Assembly: GCA_022821875.1 (NCBI GenBank)
Contig: JAJECV010000070.1
Coordinates: 18,676 to 82,675, forward strand
DNA length: 64,000 bases
Direction of reading: 5' to 3'
Origin: Rhodothermales bacterium
Lineage (GTDB): Bacteria; Bacteroidota; Rhodothermia; Rhodothermales; Bin80
A program made the translations under genes and the position numbers. How positions within the stretch are numbered: position 1 is the first letter of the stretch; each line of letters starts with the position of its first letter. This document shows positions 27,333-60,227 of the stretch, piece by piece. Under the pieces are notes generated by a model, which worked only from the letters and a program-made list of their open reading frames with translations, was not told where the DNA came from and did no database searches.

Positions 27333-27642
27333 GTTCTGTCGGGGGATTTTCAGCCCATTATCTGCAAAAGTATGCCATTGTTATGAAAACTGGGCAATCG
27401 TAGTACAATACTCTGACGACACATAAGGATAGGCATTCTTAGAAGTACCGGAGATACGGTCAACTGTCTACGGGGAGGATGACTCTGGATAATTCACTGG
27501 CATTGGATCGTTAAATCCACGGCGGCAAGCTGCCTGCTCCTTGAAGCATCATTCTCGAAAAATGTGTCTGATTTGACTGCCAATATCTCAGAATTCACTA
27601 TAATACAGTTCTTATTCAATCCTTGTCTCTGTGCTGATCGTG

Positions 27643-33734: not shown

Positions 33735-33750
33735 CATCATCCAGCCTATT

Positions 33751-38505: not shown

Positions 38506-38794
38506 TGTCAACAAGTACAACAATATCATTGTGTTACTGTTCCCAAGGAATGTCTTCCCACAATGAACTCTCACTGATAACGGTTTCCATTCAGCATTCC
38601 CCCTGCCTTGCACTTATATGGAAGGCTTAATAATTATTCACATCCCCCACTGATGGTCAGTATTTACCGCATCAGTCAATTTTCCCTGAATCTGAACCGC
38701 CCATCCAAACGAAAAACCGGACTGCAGCAATTCATTCAACGCCTTGAGACTCTGACGGGTGCAGCAACGAATTGCTGGAGGCCGATTACCAATA

Positions 38795-39451
38795 TTACAG
38801 TACGCTCGGATTAGTAAGCCCGGCGAAATAGTCTTTCAGATTATTCCACCTTAGCACAAGCGCTTCCTGCGACACTTCCTCACTTTTTTCTAGACGCACA
38901 AAGAATCTGCACTTCCCTTCTATGCGTCCGTCTCCTAGTCTATACATCTCTCTGGCAAAGTCAATCATTTCGGATTCACTGAGTTCTCTTTGATCATACG
39001 GGCGAACATACTGCTGTAACCCAGGCCACCCAGACTCTATGAGTTGTGTATTCAATCTAATTTGGTAGTCCGCTGGATTCACCCGGATCGTCATGGGGGA
39101 ATTGGGCTGCTTATCTTCGTCTCTTCCCAGACAACTGCGACTCCCGATTTTCCCCTCATCGTCCAGCAAATTCTCGATGGAGTCCTTAAGAACAATCACC
39201 AACTGAGCACTTGGATATTCATTTAGATACTCGTCAAATACATCCAGGAGGCTGTCTACCTGGGTTTGCAATTCGCTTATTGAGTCACGGAGTATCTCAT
39301 CGGTTTCTGGATTATCTAATCCATCATCGGCCGAATTATTATTGATGTAGGCCACCGTAACCGTACCCGAAAGAAATGCAATGACTAAAATTGCCGTCAT
39401 CAAATCGGTGATCGCGGGCCATACCGTAACCCTAGTCCGCTTCCGCCTCAT
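38795..39451 (-). CDS. MotB/TolR/ExbD-like single-pass membrane protein (stator plug/anchor candidate) with unrecognised periplasmic domain
   Basis: The N-terminus 'MRRKRTRVTVWPAITDLMTAILVIAFL' has basic residues followed by a TM helix carrying an Asp, in the W-x-x-x-(T/A)-D-L-M-T context typical of MotB/TolR. The start overlaps the upstream stop (TAATG). No OmpA-like peptidoglycan-binding motif was seen. Confidence 0.5.
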   Translation of the reverse strand: MRRKRTRVTVWPAITDLMTAILVIAFLSGTVTVAYINNNSADDGLDNPETDEILRDSISELQTQVDSLLDVFDEYLNEYPSAQLVIVLKDSIENLLDDEGKIGSRSCLGRDEDKQPNSPMTIRVNPADYQIRLNTQLIESGWPGLQQYVRPYDQRELSESEMIDFAREMYRLGDGRIEGKCRFFVRLEKSEEVSQEALVLRWNNLKDYFAGLTNPSVL

Positions 39452-41025
39452 TACTTTTCCCTTTCCATCTCCTTAACCATATCCGAAATAAGGTGAACAA
39501 GGCCCTGGATAATTTTTTCCAGGCTCTCGTGTGTATGCTGAACAGTTTCAATGTACATGTTCATCTTATCAGAGAGTGGGGCTAACGCTTCCGCGGTAGT
39601 GGAACCTACCACCTCGTTGATATTCGTCCCCACTTCCTCTAATTCCTTTGGAATTCCCGATAGAACTTGCGCGGCCTCTCGCAATTTATCTCCAAACTGC
39701 TGCGCAGCCTCAGGCATAGTCGCCGCCGTCTCCTCCAATCGTACAGCTATTCCTCCTAGAGGATTAACAATATGCTCCTCCATTTTATCGCGAAGTTCGC
39801 CGAAAGAATCAACGATTTTCTGGTTCTCGCTGATGAGCTTATTGATCTGGATAGCCTGACTATTTTCAAGTGAATCTGTGAATTCGGATAAGGAATCAAT
39901 GATTCTCTGATTCTCGCTGACGAGACTCCCAAACCGACGATCCTGACTACTTTCAAGCGATCTGATGAATTCGGATAAGGACTTGATTACCGTCTGATTC
40001 TCGGTGACAATCTTGTTGATCAGGTGCTCTTGCTTACTTTCAAGCGACTTCCCGAACTGGGATATTGCTTCCTGAAAAGCCCTGTCCAGTCCACTCACAT
40101 AGTTTCTTACCTCCCTTCCAAAAATCTCGTCTATCTTCTCCGCGTTAATTGATTTTTGGATTTTACCGGGTAGCCGCTCAATTTCTGTTGTTAGGGATTT
40201 TCTTTCATTAATCAGTCTTCTTAGAGAATCATCAACTCTCTCCAGCAAGTTTTGCTGATCTGTCTGGATTTTTGCGACGGATCCTTGCTGCTCCTTTGAA
40301 TAATTCTTTAATTCTATAAGCACTTCGTCGATTTTTTGGGTAACATCTTTCTGATTTTCCAATGCATCCCAAACAATAGCCTGTTGTTCTCCAAAACGCC
40401 TCTGCATATCATTCATCACGGCGGTCTGCCCTTGAAGAAACTCTGGAATCATCTCAAAAAGATCCAAAGCATCCGCCTCATTCCATGCCTCTGTCAACTC
40501 TTCTAGTTGTTTACTTAATTCGGATTCTGGGACTTTCTCTTGTGCCTGCGCATCCAGTAGTTCGGCTTCCTTCTTGCTTATCTGGTCATGTGCAGTGGAC
40601 AATATGCTAGATGTAATGTAGAGATGATTCAAGACACCAATTAAACTGGAAAGCAAGGCAAGGAGGAGGCCCAAAATAATCGCCCCAAACCACACGGAAC
40701 TTATATCTCTTGAATAACCTACCCATAGCCCTGTGGAAATTGCCTCCAGAAGAAAAATACCCATTGTCCCCCCAATACCGGCTACAAGGGCAGCATTTGA
40801 AAATGATCGGACTTTCTCCAGGGGAAGTTCCACCATCCGGTCAAACTGATCAATGACCACATCCGATGCGGTGACATCCTTGATGTCAAACTTTCTCAGA
40901 CTCAGGATATGGTCAATTTCTCTTAAAGCACGGTCGGAATCTCCAAAAATCTTTTTCTGCCACCATATCAGAAAAACGAACGCCCCAATTTCTATGACAA
41001 GAATCAGTGCAGCGATAAATCCCAT
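39451..41025 (-). CDS. MotA/ExbB/TolQ-like membrane protein with ~380-aa cytoplasmic coiled-coil tail (ZorA-like architecture)
   Basis: Three TM helices (aa 1-24, 76-100, 110-137), with 'AGIGGTMGIF' where MotA/ExbB has its G-rich TM2 motif. A long heptad-rich tail follows, containing three 29-aa repeats. Confidence 0.45.
   Translation of the reverse strand: MGFIAALILVIEIGAFVFLIWWQKKIFGDSDRALREIDHILSLRKFDIKDVTASDVVIDQFDRMVELPLEKVRSFSNAALVAGIGGTMGIFLLEAISTGLWVGYSRDISSVWFGAIILGLLLALLSSLIGVLNHLYITSSILSTAHDQISKKEAELLDAQAQEKVPESELSKQLEELTEAWNEADALDLFEMIPEFLQGQTAVMNDMQRRFGEQQAIVWDALENQKDVTQKIDEVLIELKNYSKEQQGSVAKIQTDQQNLLERVDDSLRRLINERKSLTTEIERLPGKIQKSINAEKIDEIFGREVRNYVSGLDRAFQEAISQFGKSLESKQEHLINKIVTENQTVIKSLSEFIRSLESSQDRRFGSLVSENQRIIDSLSEFTDSLENSQAIQINKLISENQKIVDSFGELRDKMEEHIVNPLGGIAVRLEETAATMPEAAQQFGDKLREAAQVLSGIPKELEEVGTNINEVVGSTTAEALAPLSDKMNMYIETVQHTHESLEKIIQGLVHLISDMVKEMEREK
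39781..40023 (-). repeat. Three tandem ~87-bp (29-aa) repeats inside the coiled-coil tail
   Basis: The units are IVTENQTVIKSLSEFIRSLESSQ.. / VSENQRIIDSLSEFTDSLENSQ.. / ISENQKIVDSFGELRDKM. DNA-level recurrence of TGAATTCGGATAAGGA...CTGATTCTCG is visible. Confidence 0.8.
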
Positions 41026-41027
41026 AT

Positions 41028-42395
41028 TTATTTACTCTCGCACTCCCGGATTTTCGGAGAAGGTATCTTTGAGTGATAGTAACTGGGCTGTATGCCTTCC
41101 ATGAATTGCTCAAGCCCAAGGGTTAGATCGCTACGATGCTCAACTGATGACCAGTCGGCCCAGTCCGCGGACTCTCCATATTCTACTCCCACATCAATAG
41201 ATGTATCACTGCACACTCCGGTACGATCCCCACGGATCGTTTCTCGAAGTGCCTTACAGTTGAGGTCCATATTAATCTGTGCGGCCTCATTATCGTCCTT
41301 ACTCACGCGAATGATCCCCTTCACATCATCCGTTTCCACTGATGTAATCGTCACCAGACTGTCTGCAAATCTGCCGGCCAAACTATGTGTTCCACTGTCT
41401 TTGCAATAGTAACCGTGCTCCTTATCAAGCCCAACAGGCTGAAAACCTGTTCCTTCATAAGCCAGCCAGTCGAAATTGGCCTGCCCGGTTAAGGAGCCTA
41501 GAGTTATGGTCGTATGCTTCACCCCCAATCCAATATCCTCAATAGACTCCGTAAACTCTGTTGCCAGATTGTGTACAGGGTTGTTTTCACGGCTATCCCC
41601 CCCTGGCCTCCGTCCCATAATGAGAACATAGATTGGCCTCTTCGCAACTGCTTCCATGGACTGATAGCGCTGCTGGCCTTCATGAAACCAGCAGCCTAAA
41701 GGTCCGGGTACCGAACGACATGTTCCACTGTGTACCCCCCAGTAATCAATGCGAATGCCTACGATGGCAACATCAATTTCACCTGCATTGTAGTATGCCC
41801 TTATTGCTGGATCTTTGAAGTACGGCAGCAGGGCTGTAGCCCCGATTCCATAGTTGGTAGTCGTAATCAAATCAGTAACCAGTGCTGCCCCTTTGAGCGT
41901 GCCGCTCTTGAGTCCTTCAATCACATCTCGAATGCCCTGATCCAGACGGGATTCTCCACCGGTAAAAAATCCTCTGTTCAAAGTGCTTTCACAATCTACC
42001 GTTGTAATGGAATCCGTGATTCCAAGGCACTTGAGCGAAGACTCCCCGCCCCCGTAATCTGTGGTCAATCGCGCACTCTTCAATAAATTGTGGATCCTCT
42101 GAAGCGCGTCCTGACTGTCTGGATTCGTCCGATGAACATATCCTCCCATCGGAATAGACTGATCCCAAAGAAGTTGAAAAACATGCCTGACCGAGTCACG
42201 GTCTACCGATTCCCATAATGCCTCCGAATCCTCCCATACCGGTTCAACTTCCGCAGTGACGCTGAGAAACTCACCTTCTTCTCCATCCGAAGATGAGGCG
42301 CAGCCAATTTGCAAAAACATCCCGGTCACCAGAAATCCTGCACCCACGATTGTCATCCACCACTGCGTGTCGCTATTGGAGCCTTTCCGTATCAT
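41028..42395 (-). CDS. Lipoprotein of unknown function (455 aa)
   Basis: TM/signal 'WWMTIVGAGFLVTGMFLQIGCASSS' with a lipobox-like Cys, and several further Cys residues. It has an ATGA overlap with the upstream gene and a 2-nt gap to the downstream gene. Confidence 0.6.
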   Translation of the reverse strand: MIRKGSNSDTQWWMTIVGAGFLVTGMFLQIGCASSSDGEEGEFLSVTAEVEPVWEDSEALWESVDRDSVRHVFQLLWDQSIPMGGYVHRTNPDSQDALQRIHNLLKSARLTTDYGGGESSLKCLGITDSITTVDCESTLNRGFFTGGESRLDQGIRDVIEGLKSGTLKGAALVTDLITTTNYGIGATALLPYFKDPAIRAYYNAGEIDVAIVGIRIDYWGVHSGTCRSVPGPLGCWFHEGQQRYQSMEAVAKRPIYVLIMGRRPGGDSRENNPVHNLATEFTESIEDIGLGVKHTTITLGSLTGQANFDWLAYEGTGFQPVGLDKEHGYYCKDSGTHSLAGRFADSLVTITSVETDDVKGIIRVSKDDNEAAQINMDLNCKALRETIRGDRTGVCSDTSIDVGVEYGESADWADWSSVEHRSDLTLGLEQFMEGIQPSYYHSKIPSPKIRECESK

Positions 42396-42946
42396 ATTTG
42401 CGTCTGTGTTCGTGGTTTACCGGTGGATTTCAAATCCGCAACGAATTCCTGAATGTTTTCCAGGCGATTTAATGCATCCCTGAGGATTGAGGCTTGATGA
42501 TTCCGGCGGCGGTCAAGTTGCCGCAGTACTCCATTCGCCAATTTCATCGCCCCTTTGACCGGTAGAGAAAGTAACCTAGAAGAAATCTGAGTACCCCGCC
42601 CGGATGTTTTTTGTGACCGAGAATAAACTGCTCTGGAATCCCCCTGCACTTCTGCCGGAAGTTCTCTCATTGTCTGAAATCGGGGCAAATTCTCTGCAAC
42701 ATCCAGCATATTTTGAAGGACACGTTGATCCAGCGAAGCGGGACGGCGATGTATTTTTGCATCAAGGCGACCCAGTTTTTCAATCACTGACTGGATAACT
42801 GGAATCGCCCCCCATTTGACCAGGAGAGAAGAAATCCGCAGCAGGACTGCTTCGTATAGAGAAATGCTGATCAGCGACAGATGGGACACAAGAAGCATGA
42901 AGCCTTCAAAATTTAGACTTGGCTCATTCATTGTAATCACAAACAT
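42392..42946 (-). CDS. Small helical protein with hydrophobic N-terminus (184 aa), unknown function
   Basis: ORF in an operon context. 'FMLLVSHLSLISISLYEAVLLRISSLLV' could be a TM or amphipathic anchor. No motif was recognised. Confidence 0.5.
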   Translation of the reverse strand: MFVITMNEPSLNFEGFMLLVSHLSLISISLYEAVLLRISSLLVKWGAIPVIQSVIEKLGRLDAKIHRRPASLDQRVLQNMLDVAENLPRFQTMRELPAEVQGDSRAVYSRSQKTSGRGTQISSRLLSLPVKGAMKLANGVLRQLDRRRNHQASILRDALNRLENIQEFVADLKSTGKPRTQTQI

Positions 42947-42992: not shown

Positions 42993-45900
42993 CTATCCTT
43001 CCTGGAATTCCCTTGACTTGAGCACATTCTCCCAGATAAGGGCTGCAATCGGTGCATCTACCGTATCATCACTCCGCGTTGCCTCGTCACCCGAAATGCT
43101 GTCATTGATTTCTTTCATGAAGATATCTTCAATCCTTTTTACGCCTTCGCCACTATTTGGAGAATGTATAATGAGCGGTGGATTGAATTCACCAATACAC
43201 AAACTAACCGACCTGCTGACTCCCTCAAATGGAAGTTTCTCATACCAATTTCTCCGTTCATCTTCGGTCCCTCTACTAAGGAGCAGCACATCCGACAAAG
43301 GAAAGCGATGGCTTCCCGCAACCGCTTTCTCCGGGCTCATACTCTTGCCGACCGCATGCTTAATTGGTCCGAGTTTCGGCGGCGAATCGTCCTTGTAATC
43401 AGCCGGGTACCACACCTTTTCTAGTGAAATACCCTCAAAGCCTACTTCTTTCCAAAGTTTGATGGCACGCTGCTTCACCCACTCTTCCATATCTTCCTGA
43501 ATCTCCTTATAACTCGTTCTACGGTACCAAAGACGCCACCCATTCCCCTTGAGATGGACGATGAGTTTTAACTTCTGAAGATCGCTCTCCGATTCCAGTA
43601 ACGGTAAGACATTTTTCGCAACATAGGCGACGAGGTTGCGAGCCAGAAAATCATTAATGACCCGGAAGTATCGATTGATTAATTCCCTTGCATCATTAGC
43701 ATCCTGAGGCTTTTCAAACCCCTTAAGTTTTAAAGCATCAGCACTCCAGTTCCTGCTCTGAGTTCCGAACAATTTCTCTGATCCAACCGAGCGCATCCAC
43801 GCACGTAGTTGTTCAAATGCCTTATCCGGCTTCCAGCCTCTATTCCTTGGCAAGTATTTTTCTGAGTGCCTTGCTAAAACTTGAAGAAGAAGATCACTCC
43901 CCATCTTTACACTTTCCGCCACCTCGCCAAATCCCCTGTCCTCAGACCCATAACTGTCTATATCCTTCGTCGCCATGAATATATCCAATGTTCCACCACC
44001 TAAATCAGCCACAAGTTTCACCGCAATCGGAATTCCTGGCCCTATTGAATCGAATGCGGCACTTGACTCGCTGTATAGCCCATTACCTTTGGCCCCTTCA
44101 CGGCCTTCCGTGAGCATGAACTTCGATCCAAGATCATCTTCACAGACATCCAATACCTTAACGACTACTTCCCCATAACGACTTGTAGCCTGCGTGGTGG
44201 TTCCACGCAAAGGGTACGTGAAAGTGACCTCAACTGTCCCAGGCAAACTCTCTTCACGCTTAGCGATATCTGCCAGGAAAATTTCGATTGCCATCCTGAG
44301 ATACCTCTCCCGAAGCCATTCTTCCTTCTGCGTAAATCGACCTCTATCCATCTCCCATTTGAACCCGGATATAATATGATTCTGGAGATCTGAGCGCTGC
44401 AGTTGCATAACGGGGATTGCATAATGCGTCATCGGAGCCCATTCATCCTTGAATCTCTCGGTCTCTACAGAATCAAGCTCTCCGAAAGACCAGAGATCTG
44501 ACGGCAGTAGCGCCTTTGATATTTTGTCCTCTTCCCCCTTTTTATAGGTTGGTCGCCATGTATCCAGTCCCATCTCTGCAAGGTGACCATCATAGTTTTG
44601 ACTGATATGCAACGATAAGCCATCCTCACCTGACAGTTCATTGTTAAGATTGACCAAATGTTTCTCATTAATCTGGTATGCGGCAACGGTATGGGAAGTC
44701 CCAAAATCTATGGCGAGTTTCCAGGTATTCTCGTCTCTGGAATATTCCTTCAGGCAAATTACATAGATCCCCGCATCACGATCTGTTTTGTGATCGTAGG
44801 CAGATAAAGCTACAGGCGGCCCTCCCACGTGTCGGCCATCCTTGAAATCCACGGCCTGACTGTATCCAGGGCGACTCAGTGGTCGCTTCTTCAACTCGGA
44901 CAGACTGCCTTCCTTGTCCAGATAAATGGTTTGAGCCTCCAGTCTTGGAGAATTCTCATACAGATAATAAGCACGCCACTGCTCCTTCCCGTTCGGCGCT
45001 TTAATGTTGGGCCAGATCATCCAGTGAGCATTTGAAGATTCGATACCATCCACAGAAATCGTGACCGGAACTGGTTCAGATCGCCCCAGAAGATCCAAGT
45101 TCCAATGAACGACTTTACGCCCTCTATCTACATTACCGGATTGTTTGAGCCGTCTCCAGGCATGGTCGTGATCTATGCATTTTTCTCCCTCATTTTTCTC
45201 GCCTTTCGGGATCTTCAAGAGATCAATGTAATCCGGGCGAAGCGGAATATCTGGATATAGCGTTTTATTTTCTCCGGTTCCATTCACCGATTTTTGGGTC
45301 AAAGGGACACAAGTATCAATCTGAATCGTTTCCCTGTCAATGACCTGCAGGTTCCGGATGTAGATTGGCTCTTCGCCTAACGTTTCCCTGATCCAGATGC
45401 CTCTATTCTCTTGGTCCCTCCTCCACGCAAAAATTTTACGCGTTTCCTGAAGTTGATCCAAATGCTCCCTCCATATTGCTCCAATCGTATAGTCAATATT
45501 TCTGGGCAATCGAAAGTTCTTGATGATCTCGAATGTTTCAGATTTGCGAGATTTCTCAACGGTACACTTTTCAAACTCGGGGACTCCGCTGATCAATTCA
45601 TCAATGCTTTTCTCCGCACCCTTTCTGCCGGGATCAAGATCTTCAAACAGATACAGAGAATCCCCCATAACGGGCATGGGGATTTTTACGTCGCCGCCCG
45701 GTAAAGGCAGCCATTCTGCAACCCCGAACGGACCGGCTTCCGCGTCCAAATGCGTGTCTAAGACATCAACCCAGATCCGGGAAGTCTCTTTGGCAACTTT
45801 GTCCTTAACATGGCTTTCCACGCAGTTCAGCCAACCTCTGACACACTTTCTGGCTTTTTCCCCCTCGAATCCCCAATCCGTAGAATCCCTCCAGGCGGAT

Positions 45901-48059
45901 TTGTCCTGATTATCAGAGCCAACTTTGTCTTTCACGCGGTCTGCTGCACGCTTGAGAGTGCCGCCGAGATATTTCCCGACTTTTCCGACTTCGTCTCTCC
46001 AATTCTTTGATCTCCAGTCAACATCCCAATGAATCCCCGTCAGGTCTTTCCAGAGACTTTCCCAATCTTCATTACTTACGTCTGGCGCGGGGCAGAGAAA
46101 TGTCTCCGGTGAATTGAACCCGTACACCTTACCGCTCTTCTGATGAATCAGACGGTACTCCGCTATATCTGTATCTGTATCCTTGATCAGACGCTCAAGA
46201 GACAGAAAACTCCGCCCATTTCTGGTTTCAACCTTCTGCAGTTCCAGTACGCCAATCGCTCGTCCCACCAAGAGCATTTCAAGTTTGCGCAGAGCAACAG
46301 GACTCTGATATACAATCTGGAACTTGTACTCTTCTACCACCGCAATATGATGTGGCCAGCTATTGGGGGACACATGGTCACGGTCAAAGTAATATTCAAC
46401 CGTACTACTGATCTTATCATCCGACACCTTTCCCAGTTCACCGGGTGCCCCCCATGTCGGTAAGAGCCCCGTATCGTTTTTGGAATCAATATCAGGCCAA
46501 TAGCCCTGCCCTTCGCGTGCCTTCCCTGACTTTTTGGCCAATTGCAGATTCTCCCATTCATCTTTAATCCAATGTGCAAGCCAATGAAAAAGACCCAATG
46601 CCATACACTCAACCTTGTCCAAATCGGACAGGCGTGTATTCTGTAACTCGGAAACACTGGGCAGTGACTTCTTTTTCAGTCGTTTAATGCATTCTTTCTC
46701 CGAAAGAAAGAATTTCCCTCCCTTCTCCTCCACACTGCGGCCCTCATATTGAATATCTCCCCGGCTTTCCTTTCCCAGCGACGATATCCATGCCAGAAGT
46801 TCCCGATAGGTATGCCGGATGGAATCCAGTTCATCTGCGACTTCTTTCAGGCTTGAACGATCATTCCGCAACTCTGAATTTGCCCAGTCAACAATGGCAG
46901 GGACAGGAGTCTGACCTGCAAAAATGAAGAAATTAGAAAACGATGCGTACCCTCCGTCTTTCGCGTTCTCTCCCGTTTTTCTTAACACATCGGAAAACTC
47001 TCCGAGTAGATATGTGAGGATCTGTGCATGACCGATCATCTCACGCAAGGTAGCGCCACTATCCTCCTTAATGATCATATCACCGGTCAGATAATCAGCA
47101 TCCGATGCCGATACACCATACAATCCTTCTTTGATTTCACGATCCTTTGTCGTCAGAAAGTATTTTATTCCTGCCAGTGCCCCGACCGCATGGGCATAGG
47201 AGTCCAAGGAGGGCTGTTGATTGTCGGATGTGTATTGGCGCAAGATTCTTCTATGATCCGGCACGCCTACCAGAACGGTAGGTACTTTTCTGGCCAAATC
47301 TTCCCCGTAGGATGCAAGTCCACCAGCTGCGTTCTCCTTCATCACCTTATTGCGTTCAACGGACTTGTCAAACTTCTCCCTTGATTCATCAGGCCTGCTG
47401 AACTGGAACCATCTATGCACCATGATCGCCATCACCTCAGCTTTCTTTTCCTTACACAGACGGGCAAGAGTTGGAGTGACAGATGAACCCGTTCCGCCGA
47501 CACTTGAACCGCAAACCACCATCCGCCGATCTCCACAATCGTTCAGCATATCGTTATAAGCCTCATCGTAATTCGGCTTACCCTTCCCCTCAATATCTAA
47601 CTCTTTGAGTGCAAACAGAAGCGACCCCACCGCAGGGGAGGCCATCATCCCCAGGGAATAGGTGATCTCCCGCTGTGCTTCGGATGTGATTAACGGGAGT
47701 CTGGGCGATCCCTTGAACTTGTACTTCAGGCGATGATTCGGGGGCTTATACCAATCTTTGCCTTCCCCGACAGGTAATGGACTGACATCCCGGCAGATTG
47801 GTTGATCCGGGCGACCGAAGAATTCCGCAAGATCATATTTGCCTGGGTGATTCTTGATTAAATTTTTGACTTCCTGCCAGGGAGTACTCTCCTCTTGCTC
47901 TTTCCCATCACCGGAATCCTGATCAACCAGAAACAGGTCTGGGAAATTTTTGCCTGCTTTGACAAAGAAGCCAAATGGGTATCCCAACATATGGAGACGC
48001 ACCATTGCCAGCATTACATGGGCACCAGTGCCCCCACACGCGATGAAACGATTATTCAT
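42993..48059 (-). CDS. Giant (1688 aa) protein: N-terminal FtsZ/tubulin-like GTPase motifs plus C-terminal actin/Hsp70-like (ASKHA) ATPase motifs
   Basis: At aa 5-20, 'FIACGGTGAHVMLAMV' is T1-loop-like. At aa 181-220, 'VVCGSSVGGTGSSVTPTLARLCKEKKAEVMAIMVHRWFQF' parallels FtsZ 'GGGTGTGAAPVIA..AKE.G.LTV.VVT.PF.FEG'. At aa 1114-1127, 'KLAIDFGTSHTVAA' is phosphate-1-like. At aa 1346-1363, 'AVKLVADLGGGTLDIFMA' is phosphate-2-like. No TM helix is present. Confidence 0.6.
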   Translation of the reverse strand: MNNRFIACGGTGAHVMLAMVRLHMLGYPFGFFVKAGKNFPDLFLVDQDSGDGKEQEESTPWQEVKNLIKNHPGKYDLAEFFGRPDQPICRDVSPLPVGEGKDWYKPPNHRLKYKFKGSPRLPLITSEAQREITYSLGMMASPAVGSLLFALKELDIEGKGKPNYDEAYNDMLNDCGDRRMVVCGSSVGGTGSSVTPTLARLCKEKKAEVMAIMVHRWFQFSRPDESREKFDKSVERNKVMKENAAGGLASYGEDLARKVPTVLVGVPDHRRILRQYTSDNQQPSLDSYAHAVGALAGIKYFLTTKDREIKEGLYGVSASDADYLTGDMIIKEDSGATLREMIGHAQILTYLLGEFSDVLRKTGENAKDGGYASFSNFFIFAGQTPVPAIVDWANSELRNDRSSLKEVADELDSIRHTYRELLAWISSLGKESRGDIQYEGRSVEEKGGKFFLSEKECIKRLKKKSLPSVSELQNTRLSDLDKVECMALGLFHWLAHWIKDEWENLQLAKKSGKAREGQGYWPDIDSKNDTGLLPTWGAPGELGKVSDDKISSTVEYYFDRDHVSPNSWPHHIAVVEEYKFQIVYQSPVALRKLEMLLVGRAIGVLELQKVETRNGRSFLSLERLIKDTDTDIAEYRLIHQKSGKVYGFNSPETFLCPAPDVSNEDWESLWKDLTGIHWDVDWRSKNWRDEVGKVGKYLGGTLKRAADRVKDKVGSDNQDKSAWRDSTDWGFEGEKARKCVRGWLNCVESHVKDKVAKETSRIWVDVLDTHLDAEAGPFGVAEWLPLPGGDVKIPMPVMGDSLYLFEDLDPGRKGAEKSIDELISGVPEFEKCTVEKSRKSETFEIIKNFRLPRNIDYTIGAIWREHLDQLQETRKIFAWRRDQENRGIWIRETLGEEPIYIRNLQVIDRETIQIDTCVPLTQKSVNGTGENKTLYPDIPLRPDYIDLLKIPKGEKNEGEKCIDHDHAWRRLKQSGNVDRGRKVVHWNLDLLGRSEPVPVTISVDGIESSNAHWMIWPNIKAPNGKEQWRAYYLYENSPRLEAQTIYLDKEGSLSELKKRPLSRPGYSQAVDFKDGRHVGGPPVALSAYDHKTDRDAGIYVICLKEYSRDENTWKLAIDFGTSHTVAAYQINEKHLVNLNNELSGEDGLSLHISQNYDGHLAEMGLDTWRPTYKKGEEDKISKALLPSDLWSFGELDSVETERFKDEWAPMTHYAIPVMQLQRSDLQNHIISGFKWEMDRGRFTQKEEWLRERYLRMAIEIFLADIAKREESLPGTVEVTFTYPLRGTTTQATSRYGEVVVKVLDVCEDDLGSKFMLTEGREGAKGNGLYSESSAAFDSIGPGIPIAVKLVADLGGGTLDIFMATKDIDSYGSEDRGFGEVAESVKMGSDLLLQVLARHSEKYLPRNRGWKPDKAFEQLRAWMRSVGSEKLFGTQSRNWSADALKLKGFEKPQDANDARELINRYFRVINDFLARNLVAYVAKNVLPLLESESDLQKLKLIVHLKGNGWRLWYRRTSYKEIQEDMEEWVKQRAIKLWKEVGFEGISLEKVWYPADYKDDSPPKLGPIKHAVGKSMSPEKAVAGSHRFPLSDVLLLSRGTEDERRNWYEKLPFEGVSRSVSLCIGEFNPPLIIHSPNSGEGVKRIEDIFMKEINDSISGDEATRSDDTVDAPIAALIWENVLKSREFQEG

Positions 48060-48075
48060 GTCTTCTCAGATTATT

Positions 48076-48384
48076 TTATTTCGCTTTGTTGGATTTCTTC
48101 TTTTTATAGGATGAAGTTCTTGCATGGAAAATCCCAAATCCCATTGCACAACTGGCAACGCATCCCAGGAACGCTCCTAGAACATGAGTCCACTTTTGCG
48201 CATCAGAGCAATCAGCACCGAAGAAAAGCCCGGCAAGAAAAAACGGGAGCAGTATTACGATAAACGGAAATAACTGAGCAGCAGAAAGCTTCGGTGCCGA
48301 CTCAGTTCTCCGGAGATTCCATTTACGTACAGCCCGACTTTGTAGAAAATAAAAGGCACCGTAGATAACAAGACTGACCAACAC
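48076..48384 (-). CDS. Multi-pass membrane protein; the reading frame continues upstream to a lipoprotein-type signal peptide and a C14 tract
   Basis: The ORF-track start is GTG 48384. The same frame is open up to 48540 and encodes 'HFLSKTSVLVLLFTVTGCSRLD' (signal plus lipobox VTGC). The two upstream ATGs (48551, 48544) are out of frame at the present tract length. Confidence 0.6.
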   Translation of the reverse strand: MLVSLVIYGAFYFLQSRAVRKWNLRRTESAPKLSAAQLFPFIVILLPFFLAGLFFGADCSDAQKWTHVLGAFLGCVASCAMGFGIFHARTSSYKKKKSNKAK

Positions 48385-48518
48385 CGCGACAAAGAATGTC
48401 TCTATAAACCCAAGGGTATAGTTGGTACCTGAGAACCCGCTCTGGCAGACCGTATCAAGTCGGGAACAGCCTGTAACTGTAAATAAGAGTACTAAAACCG
48501 AGGTTTTAGATAAAAAAT

Positions 48519-48532
48519 GGGGGGGGGGGGGG
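48519..48532 (-). repeat. Homopolymer G14 (C14 on the coding strand) in the 5' end of the first operon gene
   Basis: Direct count gives gg + gggggggggg + gg at 48519-48532. Confidence 0.95.
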
Positions 48533-49244
48533 TATTTTGTTCATGTGTCATTTTAGACTTTGAATTTGGGCGGATGACACTATCCCCCGTCACGGACATG
48601 CACCCCTGATGTATGGCACCGGAGGAACTCGCCGAATGTCTATGTCCTGCAAATCGTGAAGTGCTCATGGGATCTGACAATGTTGAAACGCCAAATATAA
48701 TGCATGGAGATGTTTTCACCAAACCGGCGGCATAATTGGGGACTTGCTGTTCCCCCCATGGGGATTTGGTTGCGGCCAGTCCGATTCGCAGTTCGCGGTA
48801 AACAGGGTCAGGACAGATCCGTAATTCGCGGCCGCAAAGAATCCGTTTAGGCTACCAGAGAATACAATTCAGAGCATTGTCACATCATGCTGCGGGGCTG
48901 CAGTGAACATGCAAGACACGTTGGATGTAGGAAAATGTACCCGTTTGAAATCCTTGAGATCCTGCAAAAATCTGAATAGTAGCCAGAGGATAGATACTCC
49001 ACACTCAAAGAGACAAGCCATCGTACTCCAAAAGTTCAAATGTGAAACCACATAATTGTGGGACTCTGTCGGCAATCACCAAAGTTGCCGACTGTCTAAT
49101 CCTGATGTGAGAATTTTTTGACCCCGGTATCGGGCGGACATATCCCTCCAGAGAATTTACTCTCGGAGCGAACAGAGAAACCCTCAATAATTGATTGAGA
49201 TTTGAAATCCTGCACAACCAACAAACCTCCAATCCCCCGCATCA

Positions 49245-50171
49245 ATGAAAGCCATTCCGCTCATTGCACTCCAACATCTACCCGGAATTGGAGCAAAGAC
49301 AGTGCTCAAAATGGCCGGCGATCTGCCAAGTGGCCCTGTGGAGTTTGCCGACTTTATTAACTCCAGGTTTGGACATCCATTACAGGAAACCGTACATGCG
49401 TGGGATCAAGCCCTACAAATCATGGATAAATGCCTCCAGTCAAACATAAATGTGGTTACAGTAATAGACGAGAACTATCCAGAGAGACTTCACGGAATAC
49501 GGGAAGACAGGCCGCCCGTGATGTACATCAAGGGTTCCCACGAGGCGCTTCAAAGCAATTCTGCGGTTGTCGCAATCATTGGAACACGTGAACCTACGGA
49601 CAGGGGGAGCAAAGCAGCATATGATCTGGGTTGTATCGCGGCTCAGAACAACCTACCTGTCGTAAGTGGTCTCGCCTATGGGTGTGACTATCATGGTCAT
49701 GCCGGTTGCTTGGATCAAGGCGGTATCGCTGTAGCCATACTTGCTCATGGACTGGACATGGTGTATCCGCGGAAGCATGAAAATCTGGCAAATCAAATCA
49801 TTGAAAAAGGGGGCTGCCTCTTGAGCGAATATCCCCCAGGCGTTCAAGCCAGAAAATGGACATTCATTGCCCGTGACCGACTGCAAAGCGCACTCTCAGA
49901 TATTTTAGTTGTCATCCAGACGGGGATCCACGGCGGCACACACCATACCGCTGCATTTGCCCAAACCCAGCAAAAAACGATCTTGTGCCTGCGACCTCAT
50001 GAACATGAATTACACCATCCCAGTGTACAGGGAAATGCTGACATTGTCCAGACGCGAAATGCAATCTGGATTGATGGCCCCGATGATTTAATCCCGCTCA
50101 TTCATAACCGGAATGGGAACCGGCCTGAACAGCACTGCACAAGTGGGCAACTTGAACTGTTTCCTGATTGA
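49245..50171 (+). CDS. dprA: DprA/Smf-family (SLOG-fold) DNA-processing protein
   Basis: 'LQHLPGIGAKTVLKM', 'VAIIGTREPTDRG', 'VVSGLAYGCDYHGH', 'AILAHGLDMVYPRKH' and 'TFIARDRLQSALSD' are present. At 308 aa it lacks the usual C-terminal extension. Confidence 0.65.
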   Translation: MKAIPLIALQHLPGIGAKTVLKMAGDLPSGPVEFADFINSRFGHPLQETVHAWDQALQIMDKCLQSNINVVTVIDENYPERLHGIREDRPPVMYIKGSHEALQSNSAVVAIIGTREPTDRGSKAAYDLGCIAAQNNLPVVSGLAYGCDYHGHAGCLDQGGIAVAILAHGLDMVYPRKHENLANQIIEKGGCLLSEYPPGVQARKWTFIARDRLQSALSDILVVIQTGIHGGTHHTAAFAQTQQKTILCLRPHEHELHHPSVQGNADIVQTRNAIWIDGPDDLIPLIHNRNGNRPEQHCTSGQLELFPD

Positions 50172-50322: not shown

Positions 50323-51711
50323 TCAAAACTTACTGGAGATTTTCAGGGCAACCTTTGTCAAATCGTAGGATATTGTCATGCCTGCCGGATGGCGCTTGCT
50401 CTTGGCGTAGTTTGTCCGCTCTTCCCAAATTGATTTGCCTCTTGAGATGTTGGCATCCACTTCTTGCACAAGAAGTGGATGCAGGGGGAAATTCTCAAGA
50501 TTGGTACGCGTTAAATGGAACCCATCGCCAACTGTACGCCAGTAATCCAAGAATAGATCTGATGACATGATGAGGACGGCTTTGTACAAGTCGACCTCTG
50601 TTTTGAAGCGCAGCCGAAGAACCCCAGATGAATGATGCTCACGAAAGCCCATAAAATTTCTCGCAACACCCGATATGTACAGCGAATGTATACCATCTGC
50701 CGCCAGAATGGTTTTCAGTGGAGGATACAAATGAGCATCCTTGAGTAAGTTCAGGATGGCGGCATTTTCCGGCCGTAGAAATTGCCCGCCAAAATTGTAT
50801 CCGGTTATATCATGATAGCAAGGGGTAGAATTCAGCAGTCTGCTGCGATCCTTTTTCCTCCACCGATGCATTCGTGTGGACAGTGTTCTGGGATTGTCTT
50901 CAGGAAATACGGTGACGATTGAGCACCGCTGGCTATTGGCCTTGTTTGTGTTTTTATGTTTAGGCTTCCCACTCGAAAAGAGGCAGTCAGGGATATTATC
51001 AAAACTGGAAATCGCAACACTCTTCCCGGAATTTCTCATCATGGATCGCAATTCCACATAGTCGCGACTAAAGGCGACTGACAAAGGCAGAATGAAATGA
51101 ACCGAACCATGTTCTCCACTCTCTGTCAGCGCACGCTCCAGGAAATCTGCGAAGCTATTTTTCCATCGGCTCCCCTTGGGATTCGCTACATATGGAGGGT
51201 TTCCAAAGAATAATGGCTTCTTGGATGATCCAGAGGGTGCGTAGTGAAGAAAATCGGTACACACATACCTAATGTCTGAGAAAGAGAGACCCCATTTTTT
51301 TGAAATTTTCTGAATTTCGTCACGGGCAAAGTCTAGTGCTTTGGGGTTGATGTCAATTAATGTGATTTCAGCAGATGAAAGGCAGTCCAATGGTAAGCCA
51401 AGTTCGACAACCTTTTTGAGTAACGCATACACAAGGATTCCTGCACCAGATGCAGGCTCTATGAAGTGGTGTTCCTGCCAGAAAGCCTTGATGTCCTGCT
51501 CTTCAGAAATACCATTGAGCACCATGAATTCGTTCCAGAAGAACGCGGCGGCATCTACGGGTGTATAATACGCACCTACCTTCTTGCGGGCATCTTCGGA
51601 CTGACAGGGCGACGAGTAGGATAGCGTCAACTCCGCCTTTTCGGAATGCCTTAATACCTCTTCAAGACCCGCTACCCATTCTGATCTCCAGTCCCCGTTG
51701 CAGATTTTCAT
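50323..51711 (-). CDS. N6-adenine DNA methyltransferase (gamma-class, Eco57I-like)
   Basis: Motif X 'GAYYTP', I 'IEPASGAGIL', IV 'FFGNPPYV'. The start is uncertain (ATG 51711 or 51777), and both overlap the HNH gene's 3' end. Confidence 0.8.
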   Translation of the reverse strand: MKICNGDWRSEWVAGLEEVLRHSEKAELTLSYSSPCQSEDARKKVGAYYTPVDAAAFFWNEFMVLNGISEEQDIKAFWQEHHFIEPASGAGILVYALLKKVVELGLPLDCLSSAEITLIDINPKALDFARDEIQKISKKWGLSFSDIRYVCTDFLHYAPSGSSKKPLFFGNPPYVANPKGSRWKNSFADFLERALTESGEHGSVHFILPLSVAFSRDYVELRSMMRNSGKSVAISSFDNIPDCLFSSGKPKHKNTNKANSQRCSIVTVFPEDNPRTLSTRMHRWRKKDRSRLLNSTPCYHDITGYNFGGQFLRPENAAILNLLKDAHLYPPLKTILAADGIHSLYISGVARNFMGFREHHSSGVLRLRFKTEVDLYKAVLIMSSDLFLDYWRTVGDGFHLTRTNLENFPLHPLLVQEVDANISRGKSIWEERTNYAKSKRHPAGMTISYDLTKVALKISSKF

Positions 51712-52669
51712 TGGATGGTTCGTATTCCTGGGAAACGGGTTTGGCGAATCTTGTATGGTGCAACGATTCAATCGCATCTAGCCCCTTTGCTTGTTTTTCT
51801 TGTCTGAGATACTCCGCTCGGTCCTGATTGAAGATCAGGAGATTATCTGGTCCTGGTAGCAGCAAAGCAGTATCGTAGAGAGCATGATGCTCAATACACA
51901 ATGCTAGGCCATTGTCTACTGTATTGGGAGAATTATGGACAGAATGGGGGATGATGTGTGCTGCTTCCACAATTCCCAGTTGCCGCTTACAGACACAACA
52001 TGCGTGCCCATAGGCCGCCAATACTTTTTTCTTGAATTGTGGATCACGAGGAAACGCTTTTCGTGTGTAAGAGAAGCGCATCCGTTTCTCACTTGTGGAA
52101 GTGGTCTCTCCCTCAATTGAAAGGAAATTCGCAGAATAAGAGTCACGAACAATTCTTTGAATGTCTTCGTCAGACCGCAGACGATGAAAGTGCTGTATGT
52201 TTTGCAGATAGAAGCCCAGCGAATCTGAAGTCAGGGCGATTTCGGATGTATTCTCTTCCATGTATTTTGCAGAAAATGTGCGGACAGCGGCAGAACACTC
52301 TTCAACACGTTCCTTCTGCGTTTGCCTTGCATATACCGACACCATTCTTCTGGCTTGAAGTGTGAAAATATACATCGGATCCCAAGCCGTAAATACCCTG
52401 CCGCCTTCAAAGAAGCCAATAAACGCAACATTCATTCTTCCCTCCCGGCGACTGCGTTGCTTATCAATATACTTTCTAGGAATTTGAATCCGCACCTCGT
52501 CGTCATTGGATCGCCGGTTCCCCGAATCATGCACCTGTGAGATATGCAACGAATGTAGTATTCCATTAAACTGGACAATCACGGGATTTGACCTGTCTTT
52601 GATCACAAAGTCCTCAAAGTATGGCCTCAATGAATCCTGAACGAAATGATACAATAGATCCCGCTTCAT
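51662..52669 (-). CDS. HNH endonuclease (putative restriction enzyme)
   Basis: 'CCVCKRQLGIVEAAHIIPHSVHNSPNTVDNGLALCIEHHALYD'. ATG 52669 forms an ATGA overlap with the C5-MTase stop. Confidence 0.8.
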   Translation of the reverse strand: MKRDLLYHFVQDSLRPYFEDFVIKDRSNPVIVQFNGILHSLHISQVHDSGNRRSNDDEVRIQIPRKYIDKQRSRREGRMNVAFIGFFEGGRVFTAWDPMYIFTLQARRMVSVYARQTQKERVEECSAAVRTFSAKYMEENTSEIALTSDSLGFYLQNIQHFHRLRSDEDIQRIVRDSYSANFLSIEGETTSTSEKRMRFSYTRKAFPRDPQFKKKVLAAYGHACCVCKRQLGIVEAAHIIPHSVHNSPNTVDNGLALCIEHHALYDTALLLPGPDNLLIFNQDRAEYLRQEKQAKGLDAIESLHHTRFAKPVSQEYEPSNENLQRGLEIRMGSGS

Positions 52670-53700
52670 ATAGCATTCTCCAATAAGTGCTTTATCATCT
52701 TCTCCGCAAGAATGCACGGAACCGCGTTCCCTATTTGCCTTTGGACTGACCGCCTGTTCCCATAGAACTTATATTTTTCAGGAAATGTTTGAATTGCGGC
52801 CACTTCCGGGACCCGAAGTCGTCGGTTTGACCAATGGAACGGACCCACCCAAGGCCCCGGTTGCGCAGCAATTGTAATTGAGGGCAATTCAGGGTGAAGT
52901 TTATAAAGAAAATTCCAAAAACGCCCACCAGAACGAAATTTGCGGCCGTTGTAGTCAGATAATTTTGACAAGGAAATATAGTTTTTGCCCGGAGGCACGC
53001 AGGTTAGTTCATGGAAATAAGTCCCCTGAGTCGCATCTTCCTGAGGCTCAGAGAACACCGGTTGATCAAATCTTGATATGAATGGTGCAACAGCCAAATA
53101 ATCAGGGAAGGAGTCATCGAAATCCTTTTTACTATAGTCAGAATGAGTTGGGCTAGGACAAGGTATTGCCCTTGACGCACCTCGGACTCCAAAGACAAAT
53201 ACTCGCTTTCGCTTCTGTGGTACGCCAAAGTCAGCAGCGTTTGCTCGATATCGTGTGCACTGATAGCCCAGTATTTCAGCATTGGATATAAAGCGAAGAA
53301 ACTCATCTTTATTGGTCGGGTGTAGAATGCTTTCAACATTCTCAAAAAGAAAAGCCTTTGGTCGCATCTCGGACAGAACACGGATAAACTGCCCCAGCAG
53401 ATTGCGGGGATCATCCTGGATCAGCCGATTATCATGGGTCACCCAGTAGCCGTTCTTGGAAAACGGTTGGCACGGCGGGCCGCCTATCAGGACTAAATCG
53501 TCAATATCTGCCCACCGTCTGAAGTCCACATTTTTGATGTCGTCTTCAATGATATCAAAGGAGTGACCGCTGCAATTCAATCGCAATGTTTCAATTGAGT
53601 CGTGGTCATTATCAACACAGGCGATGATTTCAGCACCTGCATTTCGCGCACCAATATCAAGACCTCCTGCTCCCGTAAATATGCTGACACACTTTACCAT
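52666..53700 (-). CDS. DNA (cytosine-5)-methyltransferase
   Basis: Motif I 'SIFTGAGGLDIG', IV 'GGPPCQPFS', VI 'ENVESIL', X 'QIGNAVP'. Confidence 0.9.
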   Translation of the reverse strand: MVKCVSIFTGAGGLDIGARNAGAEIIACVDNDHDSIETLRLNCSGHSFDIIEDDIKNVDFRRWADIDDLVLIGGPPCQPFSKNGYWVTHDNRLIQDDPRNLLGQFIRVLSEMRPKAFLFENVESILHPTNKDEFLRFISNAEILGYQCTRYRANAADFGVPQKRKRVFVFGVRGASRAIPCPSPTHSDYSKKDFDDSFPDYLAVAPFISRFDQPVFSEPQEDATQGTYFHELTCVPPGKNYISLSKLSDYNGRKFRSGGRFWNFLYKLHPELPSITIAAQPGPWVGPFHWSNRRLRVPEVAAIQTFPEKYKFYGNRRSVQRQIGNAVPCILAEKMIKHLLENAI

Positions 53701-54013
53701 TCGTCAAATATCCTGCAGATACCTATCTCTTTCTTTTAATCATTGGACCAAATTATCTCCCATCTCCGTGCACTTAGTGATCCATCCGATAAAGTAGCAC
53801 CAGAACGTTCGCCATAGAAATATAAGCACCCCTCCGCAATTTTATTGAAGCCTGACTCTCAATTATTCAATCGGATCTGAAACATTGGTTACCTAAAGCA
53901 CGGAAACCACATCAACCCCACCTTCATCAAAATTACCGTAAAGCACCAGCCAAACCATTGGGCAGCAAGTTAGAGAAATCAGACCTCTCTCTCCTTTGCA
54001 CCAATGCTACGAA

Positions 54014-54874
54014 TCACTCCTCGCCCTGGAAAACTCTCAGTCCACGCAGTGAGGCTTTCTTGTACAGGGGATCCAGTACGTCCGAAAGTGACTCCTCTGC
54101 ACGCCAGAAGGGAAACTTGCCCAGACGTTTCGGCAATGCCGCCGGTGCAGGCGGAGTACGGACGACTCCGTAAAAATCATCAGGCAACGCCCCCTCCTCC
54201 CAGAAATCATCCCCCAGCCTCAGCGGAACCGATGCATGGGCTGTTTCTTCTGCCTCATCCGAATCTTCCTTTTTCACCGCCTTGGCTCCGGTGATTTCGT
54301 AGAGGAACTGTTCGCGGGTGATTCCGCGCAGCTCAAAAAGCAGAAACGGGTCACGGTCAAATTCTTCCGCCAACAAATAAATGACCGCCGCAATGTGCTT
54401 ACATGGATTCGACCAGTCTGGACAATCACACTCCATCTTCAGATCGTTCCGGGGCTCGGGTAAAAGCGGCATCCCGTGCTCTTTCATAATCCGCTCAAAG
54501 TCCTCCGGGATCTCACCCGACAGAAGCCGTGCCACATAGAAAGGCTGCTGCCGCAAAGATTCTGCCAGTTTTTTCCATTCTGTACGCTTGTAGACCTTTA
54601 GTTTAATCTCAAGATCATACGATCCGCTGCGGGAGCCCTGAACTGCAGAATCCACCTTCCCCTTCAAAATGTCAATGTACAGCACCTGCCCTCTGCGGGC
54701 ATAGGACTTCCCGCGCCCCAAACGGGCTCCGATGGAAAAACTCTCAAGCTTCTGAACCCAGCGGCGGCCCCACCAGGTCTGTCCAAACTCACCCCGTTTT
54801 GACTGTGCCTTGATCCCTCCCTCAACCGAGCGCGGCCGGGAAGGCGGAAAATAATAATTGTCATAGTAGGACAT
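54014..54874 (-). CDS. SWIM zinc-finger protein
   Basis: 'CDCPDWSNPCKHIAAVIYLL' (CxCxnCxH). It lies immediately downstream of the SNF2 helicase gene. Confidence 0.8.
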   Translation of the reverse strand: MSYYDNYYFPPSRPRSVEGGIKAQSKRGEFGQTWWGRRWVQKLESFSIGARLGRGKSYARRGQVLYIDILKGKVDSAVQGSRSGSYDLEIKLKVYKRTEWKKLAESLRQQPFYVARLLSGEIPEDFERIMKEHGMPLLPEPRNDLKMECDCPDWSNPCKHIAAVIYLLAEEFDRDPFLLFELRGITREQFLYEITGAKAVKKEDSDEAEETAHASVPLRLGDDFWEEGALPDDFYGVVRTPPAPAALPKRLGKFPFWRAEESLSDVLDPLYKKASLRGLRVFQGEE

Positions 54875-54912
54875 CCTTCAAATCGTCGGATTGATTTTCT
54901 ATATTCTGATCT

Positions 54913-57900: not shown

Positions 57901-58011
57901 GAGACTTGGTGATGAACCCGCTTTGGGTTTTATTTTACGTCCAGGAGGCGTTTCGCCCCACAGGAACAACTGCCCATCACAGGCACCAAGATGAAGAATG
58001 ACCATTTTCAA
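54913..58011 (-). CDS. SNF2-family helicase/ATPase
   Basis: Motif I 'LADDMGLGKT', II 'ILDEAQNIKN', III 'LTGTPVEN', VI 'QATDRAFRIGQ', plus a long N-terminal accessory region. Confidence 0.9.
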   Translation of the reverse strand: MKMVILHLGACDGQLFLWGETPPGRKIKPKAGSSPSLPYNTTAKALVSAASEGGLRLQVKRAVPLHMWLPAWDGVPLPSSPLIADTPPEDTDPVLAPWRITAIALSDDEAFHFLATCYGKEMLAPGVILGSDIRFFKKVLRFTSALVTREQFLPGVGEQDGEFQAVWEPVFLSNDSDKLTTLAGVMPQVCRALSHKAKKAPGESSISVVSKVVNRFVDYLVRLSWMEKRPARTRSRKASKKSFASVHDQWIQALRIWNGSMSGGTEELEHLAGQIRAWRRSISVSAIAPFRLSFRLEEPEEQEATDLWYVRYLLNAVDDPSLFIEVADAWDPGKQTKSILAKRQANIQEYLLTSLGHVSSLDPVLEESLKQPRPGGAILDTAGAYVFLTETAWLLQQAGYTVQLPAWWSSTAGARNKLSVSASISSPAMKSAGSLSLDKVVEFDWKIALGNEKLTLQELETLAEMKMPLVKIRGQWVQFDARAIQEAIDFWKKKSRSQSVTVRDVVHMALGLAETPEILPFEGVEATGWVGDLLDSLEHGAEIEEIPVPAQFEGTLRPYQSRGYAWLAFLQRWGFGACLADDMGLGKTPQTLVFIQHNWETNDQRPVLVVCPTSVMGNWQKEAAHFTPYLPVMVHHGPRRVKESEAFQEEAEKHAIVITSFPLLHRDFEALGQVNWAAVILDEAQNIKNPNTKQAKAARALQSDFRVALTGTPVENNVGELWSIMEFLNPGFLYSQAKFKRSFFVPIQIDRDMEAVERLKKITGPFILRRLKTDKTIIDDLPEKQETNVFTNLTKEQGSLYRAVVKEISDSLEGAEDDGIKRKGLILATLMKLKQICNHPAQFLHDGSAIPERSGKLTRLIEMLEEVYEVGDRVLIFTQFTEMGTMLQRHLQETFGQEALFLHGGIPKKHRDRMVERFQEDEDGPLFFILSLKAAGTGLNLTRANHVFHYDRWWNPAVENQATDRAFRIGQKKHVQVYKFVCTGTIEEQINEMIEQKQEVADSIVGTGEQWITELSTRDLKKILRLQKGAVQ

Positions 58012-60224: not shown

Positions 60225-60227
60225 ATT

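Follow-up and report, generated by a model that had tools for sequence, protein, structure and literature searches.

A conserved poly-C tract in a Rhodothermales operon as a candidate phase-variation switch for a predicted lipoprotein

Introduction

Phase variation by simple-sequence repeats (SSRs) is known mainly from host-adapted pathogens. Phase-variable surface lipoproteins occur in Mycoplasma and Neisseria, and the Haemophilus influenzae genes lic1 and lic2A, which carry 5'-CAAT repeats, reportedly initiate translation in more than one frame. As a mechanism, the poly-G/C contingency locus is classical (PMC1891110, PMC8355987, PMC5084427), and the sources cited here describe intragenic poly-G/C tracts with translational phase variation in Neisseria (hmbR, hpuA, pgtA), Campylobacter jejuni, Helicobacter and Bordetella pertussis (PMC3786947, PMC8355987, PMC2823697, PMC1891110). 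Phase-variable Type I and Type III restriction-modification systems, the 'phasevarions', are likewise described, among them H. influenzae hsd (PMC6625227). No link between Rhodothermales and phase variation was found in the literature searched.

Here we analyse a run of 14 cytosines in a 64-kb stretch of Rhodothermales DNA (the window). Like the tracts of Neisseria and Campylobacter, it is an uninterrupted G/C run of 8 or more nucleotides near the 5' end of an ORF for a predicted envelope protein, a change of one nucleotide in either direction shifts the frame, and its length differs between close strains. Unlike those pathogens, the host is an uncultured member of the Rhodothermales (Bacteroidota-related); where they have dozens of tracts, this is the sole long G/C run in the roughly 450 kb examined, and it has been kept across lineages in which the neighbouring protein is as low as 38% identical. 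As in lic2A, start codons lie upstream of the repeat in two frames, leaving two of three phases productive; the repeat here, however, is a mononucleotide rather than a tetranucleotide, and the two products differ just in the n-region of the signal peptide, which would be cleaved to leave an identical mature protein. The proposed gating of a lipobox protein by a homopolymer recalls the lipoproteins of Mycoplasma and Neisseria, although these are stand-alone antigens, whereas the protein described here has three predicted transmembrane (TM) helices and is encoded by the first gene of a multi-gene operon. Finally, an SSR switch within a defence island resembles the phasevarions and hsd, and would fit bet-hedging of immunity against its cost; in contrast to those systems, the operon has no above-threshold family match, and a defence role is suggested only by its neighbours. 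New here are the host lineage, the retention of one tract across deep divergence, its duplication together with paralogous operons inside one genome, and the uncharacterised cargo.

Results

A C14 tract sets two upstream start codons out of frame

The sequence features that determine the reading frame are as follows.

48519..48532, minus strand: C14 homopolymer (G14 on the plus strand), read from the sequence; the proposed slippage site
48542..48544, minus strand: ATG start, in frame at C10, C13 and C16 (MNKIPPPPHF...)
48549..48551, minus strand: second ATG, one frame off ATG48544, in frame at C12 and C15 (MTHEQNTPPPPHF...)
48541..48543, minus strand: TGA stop in the remaining frame, in which the downstream ORF lies at C14; it overlaps ATG48544
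48512..48517, minus strand: T6 run directly 3' of the tract (C14-A-T6)
48597..48668, minus strand: another two ATGs (48599, 48668) that share the frame of ATG48551
48076..48518, minus strand: body of the small gene (stop codon included), with the h-region, lipobox, three predicted TM helices and a KKKK tail

Around the tract the minus strand reads AAAATGACACATGAACAAAATA-C14-ATTTTTTATCTAAAACC, with the C-run at 48532..48519 encoding a poly-proline stretch in the n-region of the signal peptide. At 14 nucleotides it exceeds the length (an uninterrupted homopolymer of about 8 or more G/C) at which such runs are regarded as hypermutable. It is the sole G/C run above 7 in the 64-kb window, the longest other such homopolymer being at most 7. 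Counts of G-runs drop about fourfold with each extra base (seven runs of 6, one of 7, then the single run of 14), and none of 100 dinucleotide-preserving shuffles reached the length of the tract. Over-representation relative to sequence composition and codon usage, as seen here, is one property by which contingency loci are recognised; another is a position within an ORF, 3' of the start codon, where gain or loss of one nucleotide alters the frame of a real gene, and the tract has this position too.

We rebuilt the gene in silico with C11 to C17 and read the frame outcome of each length. Both ATGs are out of frame at C11, C14 and C17 (OFF), with products of 19 and 12 amino acids that end at TAG 48494-48492 and TAA 48508-48506. 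The gene is ON from ATG48544 at C10, C13 and C16 (MNKIPPPPHFLSK...VTGC, joining MNKIPPPPHFLSKTSVLVLLFTVTGC...) and ON from ATG48551 at C12 and C15 (MTHEQNTPPPPHFLSK...). With two ATGs 7 nucleotides apart in different frames and a TGA in the third, ON lengths therefore outnumber OFF lengths two to one. No canonical start lies between the tract and GTG48384; this codon, the earliest canonical start of the downstream frame, falls inside the first TM helix and would give a 102-aa product. These results agree with an earlier note on this DNA, which had correctly placed the G14/C14 run at 48519-48532, ATG48551, ATG48544 and the TGA at 48543-48541; its statements that neither ATG is in frame at C14, that one nucleotide more or less restores a frame, and that GTG48384 is the sole start left at C14 are confirmed by the rebuilt genes and the scan for start codons.

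The ATGs at 48599 and 48668 had been overlooked in that note. The region of ATG48668 is kept in the clade of loci L003 and L026, where the proximal ATGs are absent. ATG48551 is preceded by A at positions -1 to -4. In Bacteroidetes, AUG is depleted near start sites (PMC6847099), and two AUGs 7 nucleotides apart would be notable if that depletion extends to Rhodothermales.

The small gene encodes a predicted lipoprotein

The restored protein is 155 aa long and has a signal peptide with a lipobox (V-T-G-C, 48477..48466, minus strand; Cys26), which is followed by three hydrophobic segments and then a lysine-rich tail. We assessed it with a PROSITE-style lipoprotein rule, coded by hand: {DERK}(6)-[LIVMFWSTAG](2)-[LIVMFYSTAGCQ]-[AGS]-C, with the Cys at 15-35 and K or R in the first 7 residues. 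The form that starts at ATG48544 (MNKI) conforms to all three parts (Cys26, K3), the form that starts at ATG48551 (MTHEQN) has no K or R in its first seven residues and so departs from the third, and the lipobox pattern was present in 18 of the 18 forms tested. The product is thus a predicted lipoprotein, which would be lipidated and cleaved at the lipobox.

Homologues of the small protein (P0001-P0012) are 50-91% identical, and in every locus fetched a protein of this build is encoded directly ahead of a giant gene (about 1,650 aa). Since homologues with conserved lipobox, TM and Cys patterns precede the giant gene in more than 25 loci, we regard the small gene as real.

Upstream of the tract, one pattern match is relevant to transcription.

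48692..48723, minus strand: candidate Bacteroidota-type promoter, TTTG-N20-TATATTTG

It sits 168 nt upstream of the tract and resembles the Bacteroidota -33/-7 consensus TTTG/TANNTTTG (PMC6847099); in L018, L020 and L010, similar TAnnTTTG motifs occur at distances of 139-199 nt upstream. With promoter-like motifs so far upstream, the tract is probably within the transcript rather than in a promoter spacer. A sigma-70 scan gave a single hit, on the plus strand and facing the opposite way. An Rfam search of 47800-49400 returned just a sub-threshold match to an enterobacterial sRNA, and the leader RNA folds no better than shuffled sequence (z = -0.02).

Comparison of the window with L001, L007, L008 and L025 also showed less divergence between strains in the 200 nt upstream of the tract (48533-48760, minus strand) than in the 200 coding nt that follow it; against L007, for example, there are 4 mismatches upstream and 25 downstream. 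Possible reasons for the difference are a functional leader, an N-terminal extension or mosaicism through recombination. The ATG48551 frame runs for 76 codons without a stop, and over the open frame from ATG48668 the DNA is conserved, its indels adding up to multiples of three. We considered a conserved N-terminal extension starting there; such a start would put the Cys at residue 68, outside the norms for lipoproteins.

The tract is kept at the same site across a clade of related loci

To place the tract in a wider context, loci were aligned on the lipobox Cys, giving 14 related tract-bearing loci and, with the window, 15 in all. In the 14 relatives the C-run occupies the same site, directly 5' to (A)T5-7 and the codons that specify [HNP]F[FWL][RS]x, and 14-16 codons ahead of the lipobox Cys. 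The tract lengths are:

C10: L001, L002, L003, L007, L008, L018
C11: L004, L014
C12: L011, L013, L025
C13: L020, L026
C14: L032 (and the window itself)

The T-run 3' of the tract varies in length too, with T5 in L025 and T7 in L018. The earlier note had proposed a phase-variation layout, and a C-run kept at the same spot with lengths of 10-14 in relatives strongly backs that reading at the sequence level. The tract-bearing loci come from metagenome-assembled genomes (MAGs) labelled Rhodothermales, Rhodothermaceae or Bacteroidota, many of which have isolate names suggestive of sponge-microbiome bins. Apart from these tracts, no G/C run reached 10 nucleotides in 385 kb of related loci plus the 64-kb window (about 450 kb). 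A scan of metagenome contigs yielded two loci, one of them a duplicate, and a megablast of the region against plasmids gave no match.

Across the tract-bearing loci the giant neighbour protein is just 38-97% identical, a divergence at which synonymous sites should be saturated. Despite this, the proline codons of the tract are all CCC, whereas the adjacent gene uses CCC for 14-28% of its prolines, which points to maintenance at the DNA level. In a neighbour-joining tree of the giant protein, all tract-bearing loci fall in one clade and the outgroups are without a tract. Interrupted remnants occur inside this clade in L005 (CCCCGTCCCCC), L012 (CCCCTCCC) and L030 (CCCTCACCTC); in L009 and L010, also within the clade, the tract is wholly gone. 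L027 and L028 resemble L009 and L010 in the N-terminus of the small protein. No tract is present in L009, L010, L027, L028, L031 or the outgroups, and with so many tract-less relatives the small gene can evidently do without a switch. The simplest history would be a single gain, long upkeep and occasional decay, a pattern as expected if mutability itself were selected; the decayed tracts would then mark lineages that lost the switch.

Two homologues that lack the 5' C-tract carry other runs, a G8 in the periplasmic CQGG segment (L030, 795-802) and a T9 in TM1 (L010, 9699-9707), which may be secondary slippage sites or chance.

Furthermore, two genomes each carry two paralogous operons with a tract of their own: OZ241874.1 has L011 (C12) and L013 (C12), and OZ244061.1 has L014 (C11) and L018 (C10). 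Protein P0045 suggests a third operon copy in OZ241874.1. Paralogous tracts in one genome would permit combinatorial switching.

Near-identical strains differ in tract length and use both start codons

The earlier note had proposed comparing tract length in related strains, and here near-identical strains were found to carry C10, C12 or C14. Between the window and L001 there are 3 substitutions in 400 nucleotides of flanking sequence, yet the tracts differ by 4 nucleotides (C14 against C10). Four alleles are present in the window's clade:

AAAATA+C10: L001, L007
AAAAT+C10: L002, L008
AAAAT+C12, with T5 for T6: L025
AAAATA+C14: the window

The clade of L003 and L026 likewise contains both C10 and C13. 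Length variation with conserved flanks among close strains is a further hallmark of contingency loci.

Among the ON relatives, the MNKI frame (ATG48544) is used by L001, L007 and L025, and the MTHEQN frame (ATG48551) by L002 and L008, so that the two-ATG design appears to be exploited in nature. ATG48544 aligns with the start in tract-less relatives (MKNT..HFW), as in L010, where ATGAAAAATAC... (MKNTVSHFW) aligns with ATGAACAAAATAC... in the window. ATG48544 is therefore likely to be ancestral, and ATG48551 an addition in the window's clade, to which the two-ATG layout appears to be specific.

Most tract-bearing loci are in frame as assembled

As assembled, 11 of the 15 tract loci are ON and 4 are OFF. 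An in-frame ATG is present in 10 of the 15, and L011 has an in-frame GTG only; the sample is skewed towards ON, six of the ON loci having been found via their called protein. The OFF loci are the window (C14), L014 (C11), L020 (C13) and L032 (C14), and the source annotation of L032 calls no small gene. Automated annotation will skip or truncate the small gene in OFF assemblies.

All eight apparently short-read assemblies (the tract-bearing ones among L001-L008, L025 and L026) are ON, and the OFF calls of L014, L020 and L032 come from chromosome-scale 'OZ' records or 'ctg..x_l' contigs, whose names suggest long reads. This clustering could be an artefact of technology or a real difference. Because off-by-one homopolymer errors are plausible in long-read assemblies, some OFF states, possibly including that of the window, could be miscalls, and the count of 14 in the window assembly could itself be off by one, an assembly error that the earlier note had named as the alternative. 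In the window strain, the giant protein is identical in the NCBI, Logan and ENA assemblies, and the closest ON small protein in the collection is 91% identical, an indirect hint, and a faint one, that the OFF call is reproducible. An exact look-up of ten possible ON, OFF or truncated peptides of the window strain found none in the protein collection. In the window the other operon genes are intact and equal in length to those of L001, which argues against general decay.

The operon encodes possible tubulin/FtsZ-like and Hsp70-like folds

The small gene is predicted to head a conserved six-gene operon, the remainder of which is:

42993..48059, minus strand: giant gene, 1688 aa, beginning 16 nt after the small gene
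38795..42946, minus strand: genes for a 184-aa protein, a 455-aa lipobox protein, a 524-aa TM and coiled-coil protein and a 218-aa protein

The family of the giant protein comprises at least 129 clusters, all 'hypothetical' and without a Pfam domain, and searches of the giant protein against the PDB by sequence (single and profile) gave no match. An AF2 model of its N-terminal 430 aa (pLDDT 86) has tubulin, FtsZ, CetZ or TubZ as all of its top Foldseek PDB matches, with a probability of about 1.0; these matches are otherwise weak (E ~2e-4, TM 0.25-0.36), and the Pfam Tubulin model scores 19 bits against a cut-off of 33. The motif VGGTGSS, which may be compared with the GGGTG[ST]G-type loop, is invariant. 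The N-terminus is a candidate tubulin/FtsZ-like fold. At the C-terminus, 599 aa resemble Hsp70 nucleotide-binding domains (E = 6e-11, TM up to 0.57), and the fold of the roughly 650 aa between the two parts is unassigned.

The genes for the 524-aa and 218-aa proteins lie at 38795-41025 (minus strand). The former protein combines TM helices at its N-terminus with a long coiled coil, and its only matches, all sub-threshold, are to the tail of ZorA (PADLOC E = 2.7e-9; NCBIfam 18.7 bits, where the cut-off is 250). No ZorB-type match to the 218-aa protein was found in PADLOC or NCBIfam, although its N-terminal helix WPAITDLMTAILVIAFL, with the Asp-bearing WPAITDLMTAIL, looks MotB/ZorB-like by eye. 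The Pfam MotA and MotB models matched neither protein, even at E up to 10. The two may nevertheless form a MotAB-like motor pair, for which no model reaches threshold. No match above threshold was obtained for the operon in PADLOC, Pfam or NCBIfam. A Zorya/ZorAB label for the operon was dropped, given that no family model exceeded its threshold and neither MotA nor MotB matched.

The operon lies in a dense defence island

Defence-related genes surround the operon at 27631-36593 (plus strand) and 50323-63206. The former region (27.6-36.6 kb, plus strand) has Dcm, Vsr, HATPase_c_3, Z1/ResIII, DUF4420 and AIPR genes in a row. The latter contains an unclassified methyltransferase, an HNH/PT-DNA-restriction-like gene and another Dcm, together with a SWIM protein and SNF2 helicase (SCO1167/ZorD-like), and another Dcm and HATPase/HEF_HK protein. 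With such dense defence neighbours, a defence role for the operon is a reasonable guess, drawn from the neighbours alone.

Two further parts of the island adjoin the operon. Divergent from, and beside, the small gene is a DprA-fold gene that scores as ShosA (PADLOC E = 7e-65; 49245-50171, plus strand); it keeps its place in L001 and L002, variants of 289 and 308 aa occur in relatives, and no ShosT partner is visible nearby. Directly 3' of the operon (36621-38613, minus strand) are genes for an HTH_3 and IrrE/M78-peptidase protein (RmrA/CapP-like) and a DUF6932 protein, the latter of which comes after the operon in L001 too. This pair may be a regulator or accessory module.

Discussion

Taken together, the position, frame logic and allelic variation of the C14 tract make it likely, in our judgement, that it is a slipped-strand phase-variation switch, or contingency locus, acting on the small lipobox gene. 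As we envisage it, the tract would be a hypermutable SSR in the first codons of the gene for the three-TM lipobox protein, at which slipped-strand mispairing during replication would gain or lose one C. Each change would bring the upstream starts into register with the signal peptide and mature protein, or take them out of it. Both ON forms would lead to the same mature protein if the signal peptide is cut at the lipobox Cys, and at C14, as assembled, the small gene would be OFF. What the sequences show directly is the layout, the frame arithmetic, a tract kept in place and its differing length among strains and lineages; from these we infer frequent, reversible switching within a population, with the mixed tract lengths by which phase variation is defined, as well as the start codons used, the lipidation and any effect on the downstream genes. 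As to the last of these, Rho-dependent polarity on downstream genes was unsupported as a candidate, the coding strand of the operon being G-rich rather than C-rich across most of its length (40-48 kb).

An alternative that deserves some weight, although we consider it unlikely, is that the homopolymer has been miscounted, and that a static tract of 13 or 15 leaves the gene simply ON with a poly-proline quirk. A 14-nt homopolymer is hard for every sequencing platform, and the OFF calls concentrate in apparently long-read assemblies while the short-read-style ones are all ON. However, a miscount of one base cannot give C10, C12 and C14 within near-identical flanks, nor C10 and C13 in the L003/L026 clade, and a neutral quirk is hard to reconcile with pure CCC across deep divergence in the face of 14-28% usage; the agreement of three assemblies on the giant protein, set against a nearest ON small protein at 91%, leans slightly and indirectly the same way. 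We regard as improbable a further reading in which the tract tunes the level of expression through recoding, either by RNA-polymerase slippage on the C-run or by ribosomal +1/-1 slippage (CCC-CCC, T6). C14-A-T6 permits perfect tRNA re-pairing in shifted frames, the T-run also varies in length between loci, and consecutive prolines stall ribosomes. Against this, 11 of the 15 alleles are already in frame with a start codon, a state that would be superfluous were recoding the norm; the best-documented cases of transcriptional slippage involve A/T runs; and neither the leader fold nor the Rfam search offers a stimulatory RNA structure.

Nor does the arrangement sit well with a tract that works on transcription, as a promoter or 5'-UTR spacer, rather than via the reading frame. 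Promoter poly-G/C tracts are a known alternative type of phase variation and the start codon of the small gene is putative, but in most loci starts lie 3-60 nt upstream of the tract and are read through into a conserved signal peptide, the best promoter-like motif is 168 nt upstream, and the first canonical start beyond the tract is as distant as GTG48384; we judge this reading very improbable. Least probable of all in our estimation, and barely credible, is irreversible pseudogenisation of the small gene in the window strain: the gene is indeed out of frame as assembled, but the lesion falls exactly within a 14-nt homopolymer, where frequent reversion is expected, and neither the ORF nor the operon has further lesions.

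Returning to the phase-variable switch, a rationale for it would be bet-hedging over a costly system, as the defence neighbours lead us to suppose. A fuller reading is that a single, locus-specific contingency tract, kept by selection through the diversification of an apparently sponge-associated Rhodothermales clade, and duplicated with its operons, gates the lipoprotein of a tubulin/FtsZ-Hsp70-like and MotAB-like envelope machine; we put this forward tentatively, as a possibility with somewhat less than an even chance of being right as a whole. If true, the system would be of a new type, switched stochastically and serving in defence or in interaction with a host. The switch by itself would be a well-supported case of SSR phase variation in uncultured environmental or symbiotic Rhodothermales. 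The combination of deep conservation and decayed remnants would offer an unusually clear view of selection for mutability. Moreover, the switch would mark the operon as one that needs stochastic switching, which would provide both a clue to its function and an experimental handle.
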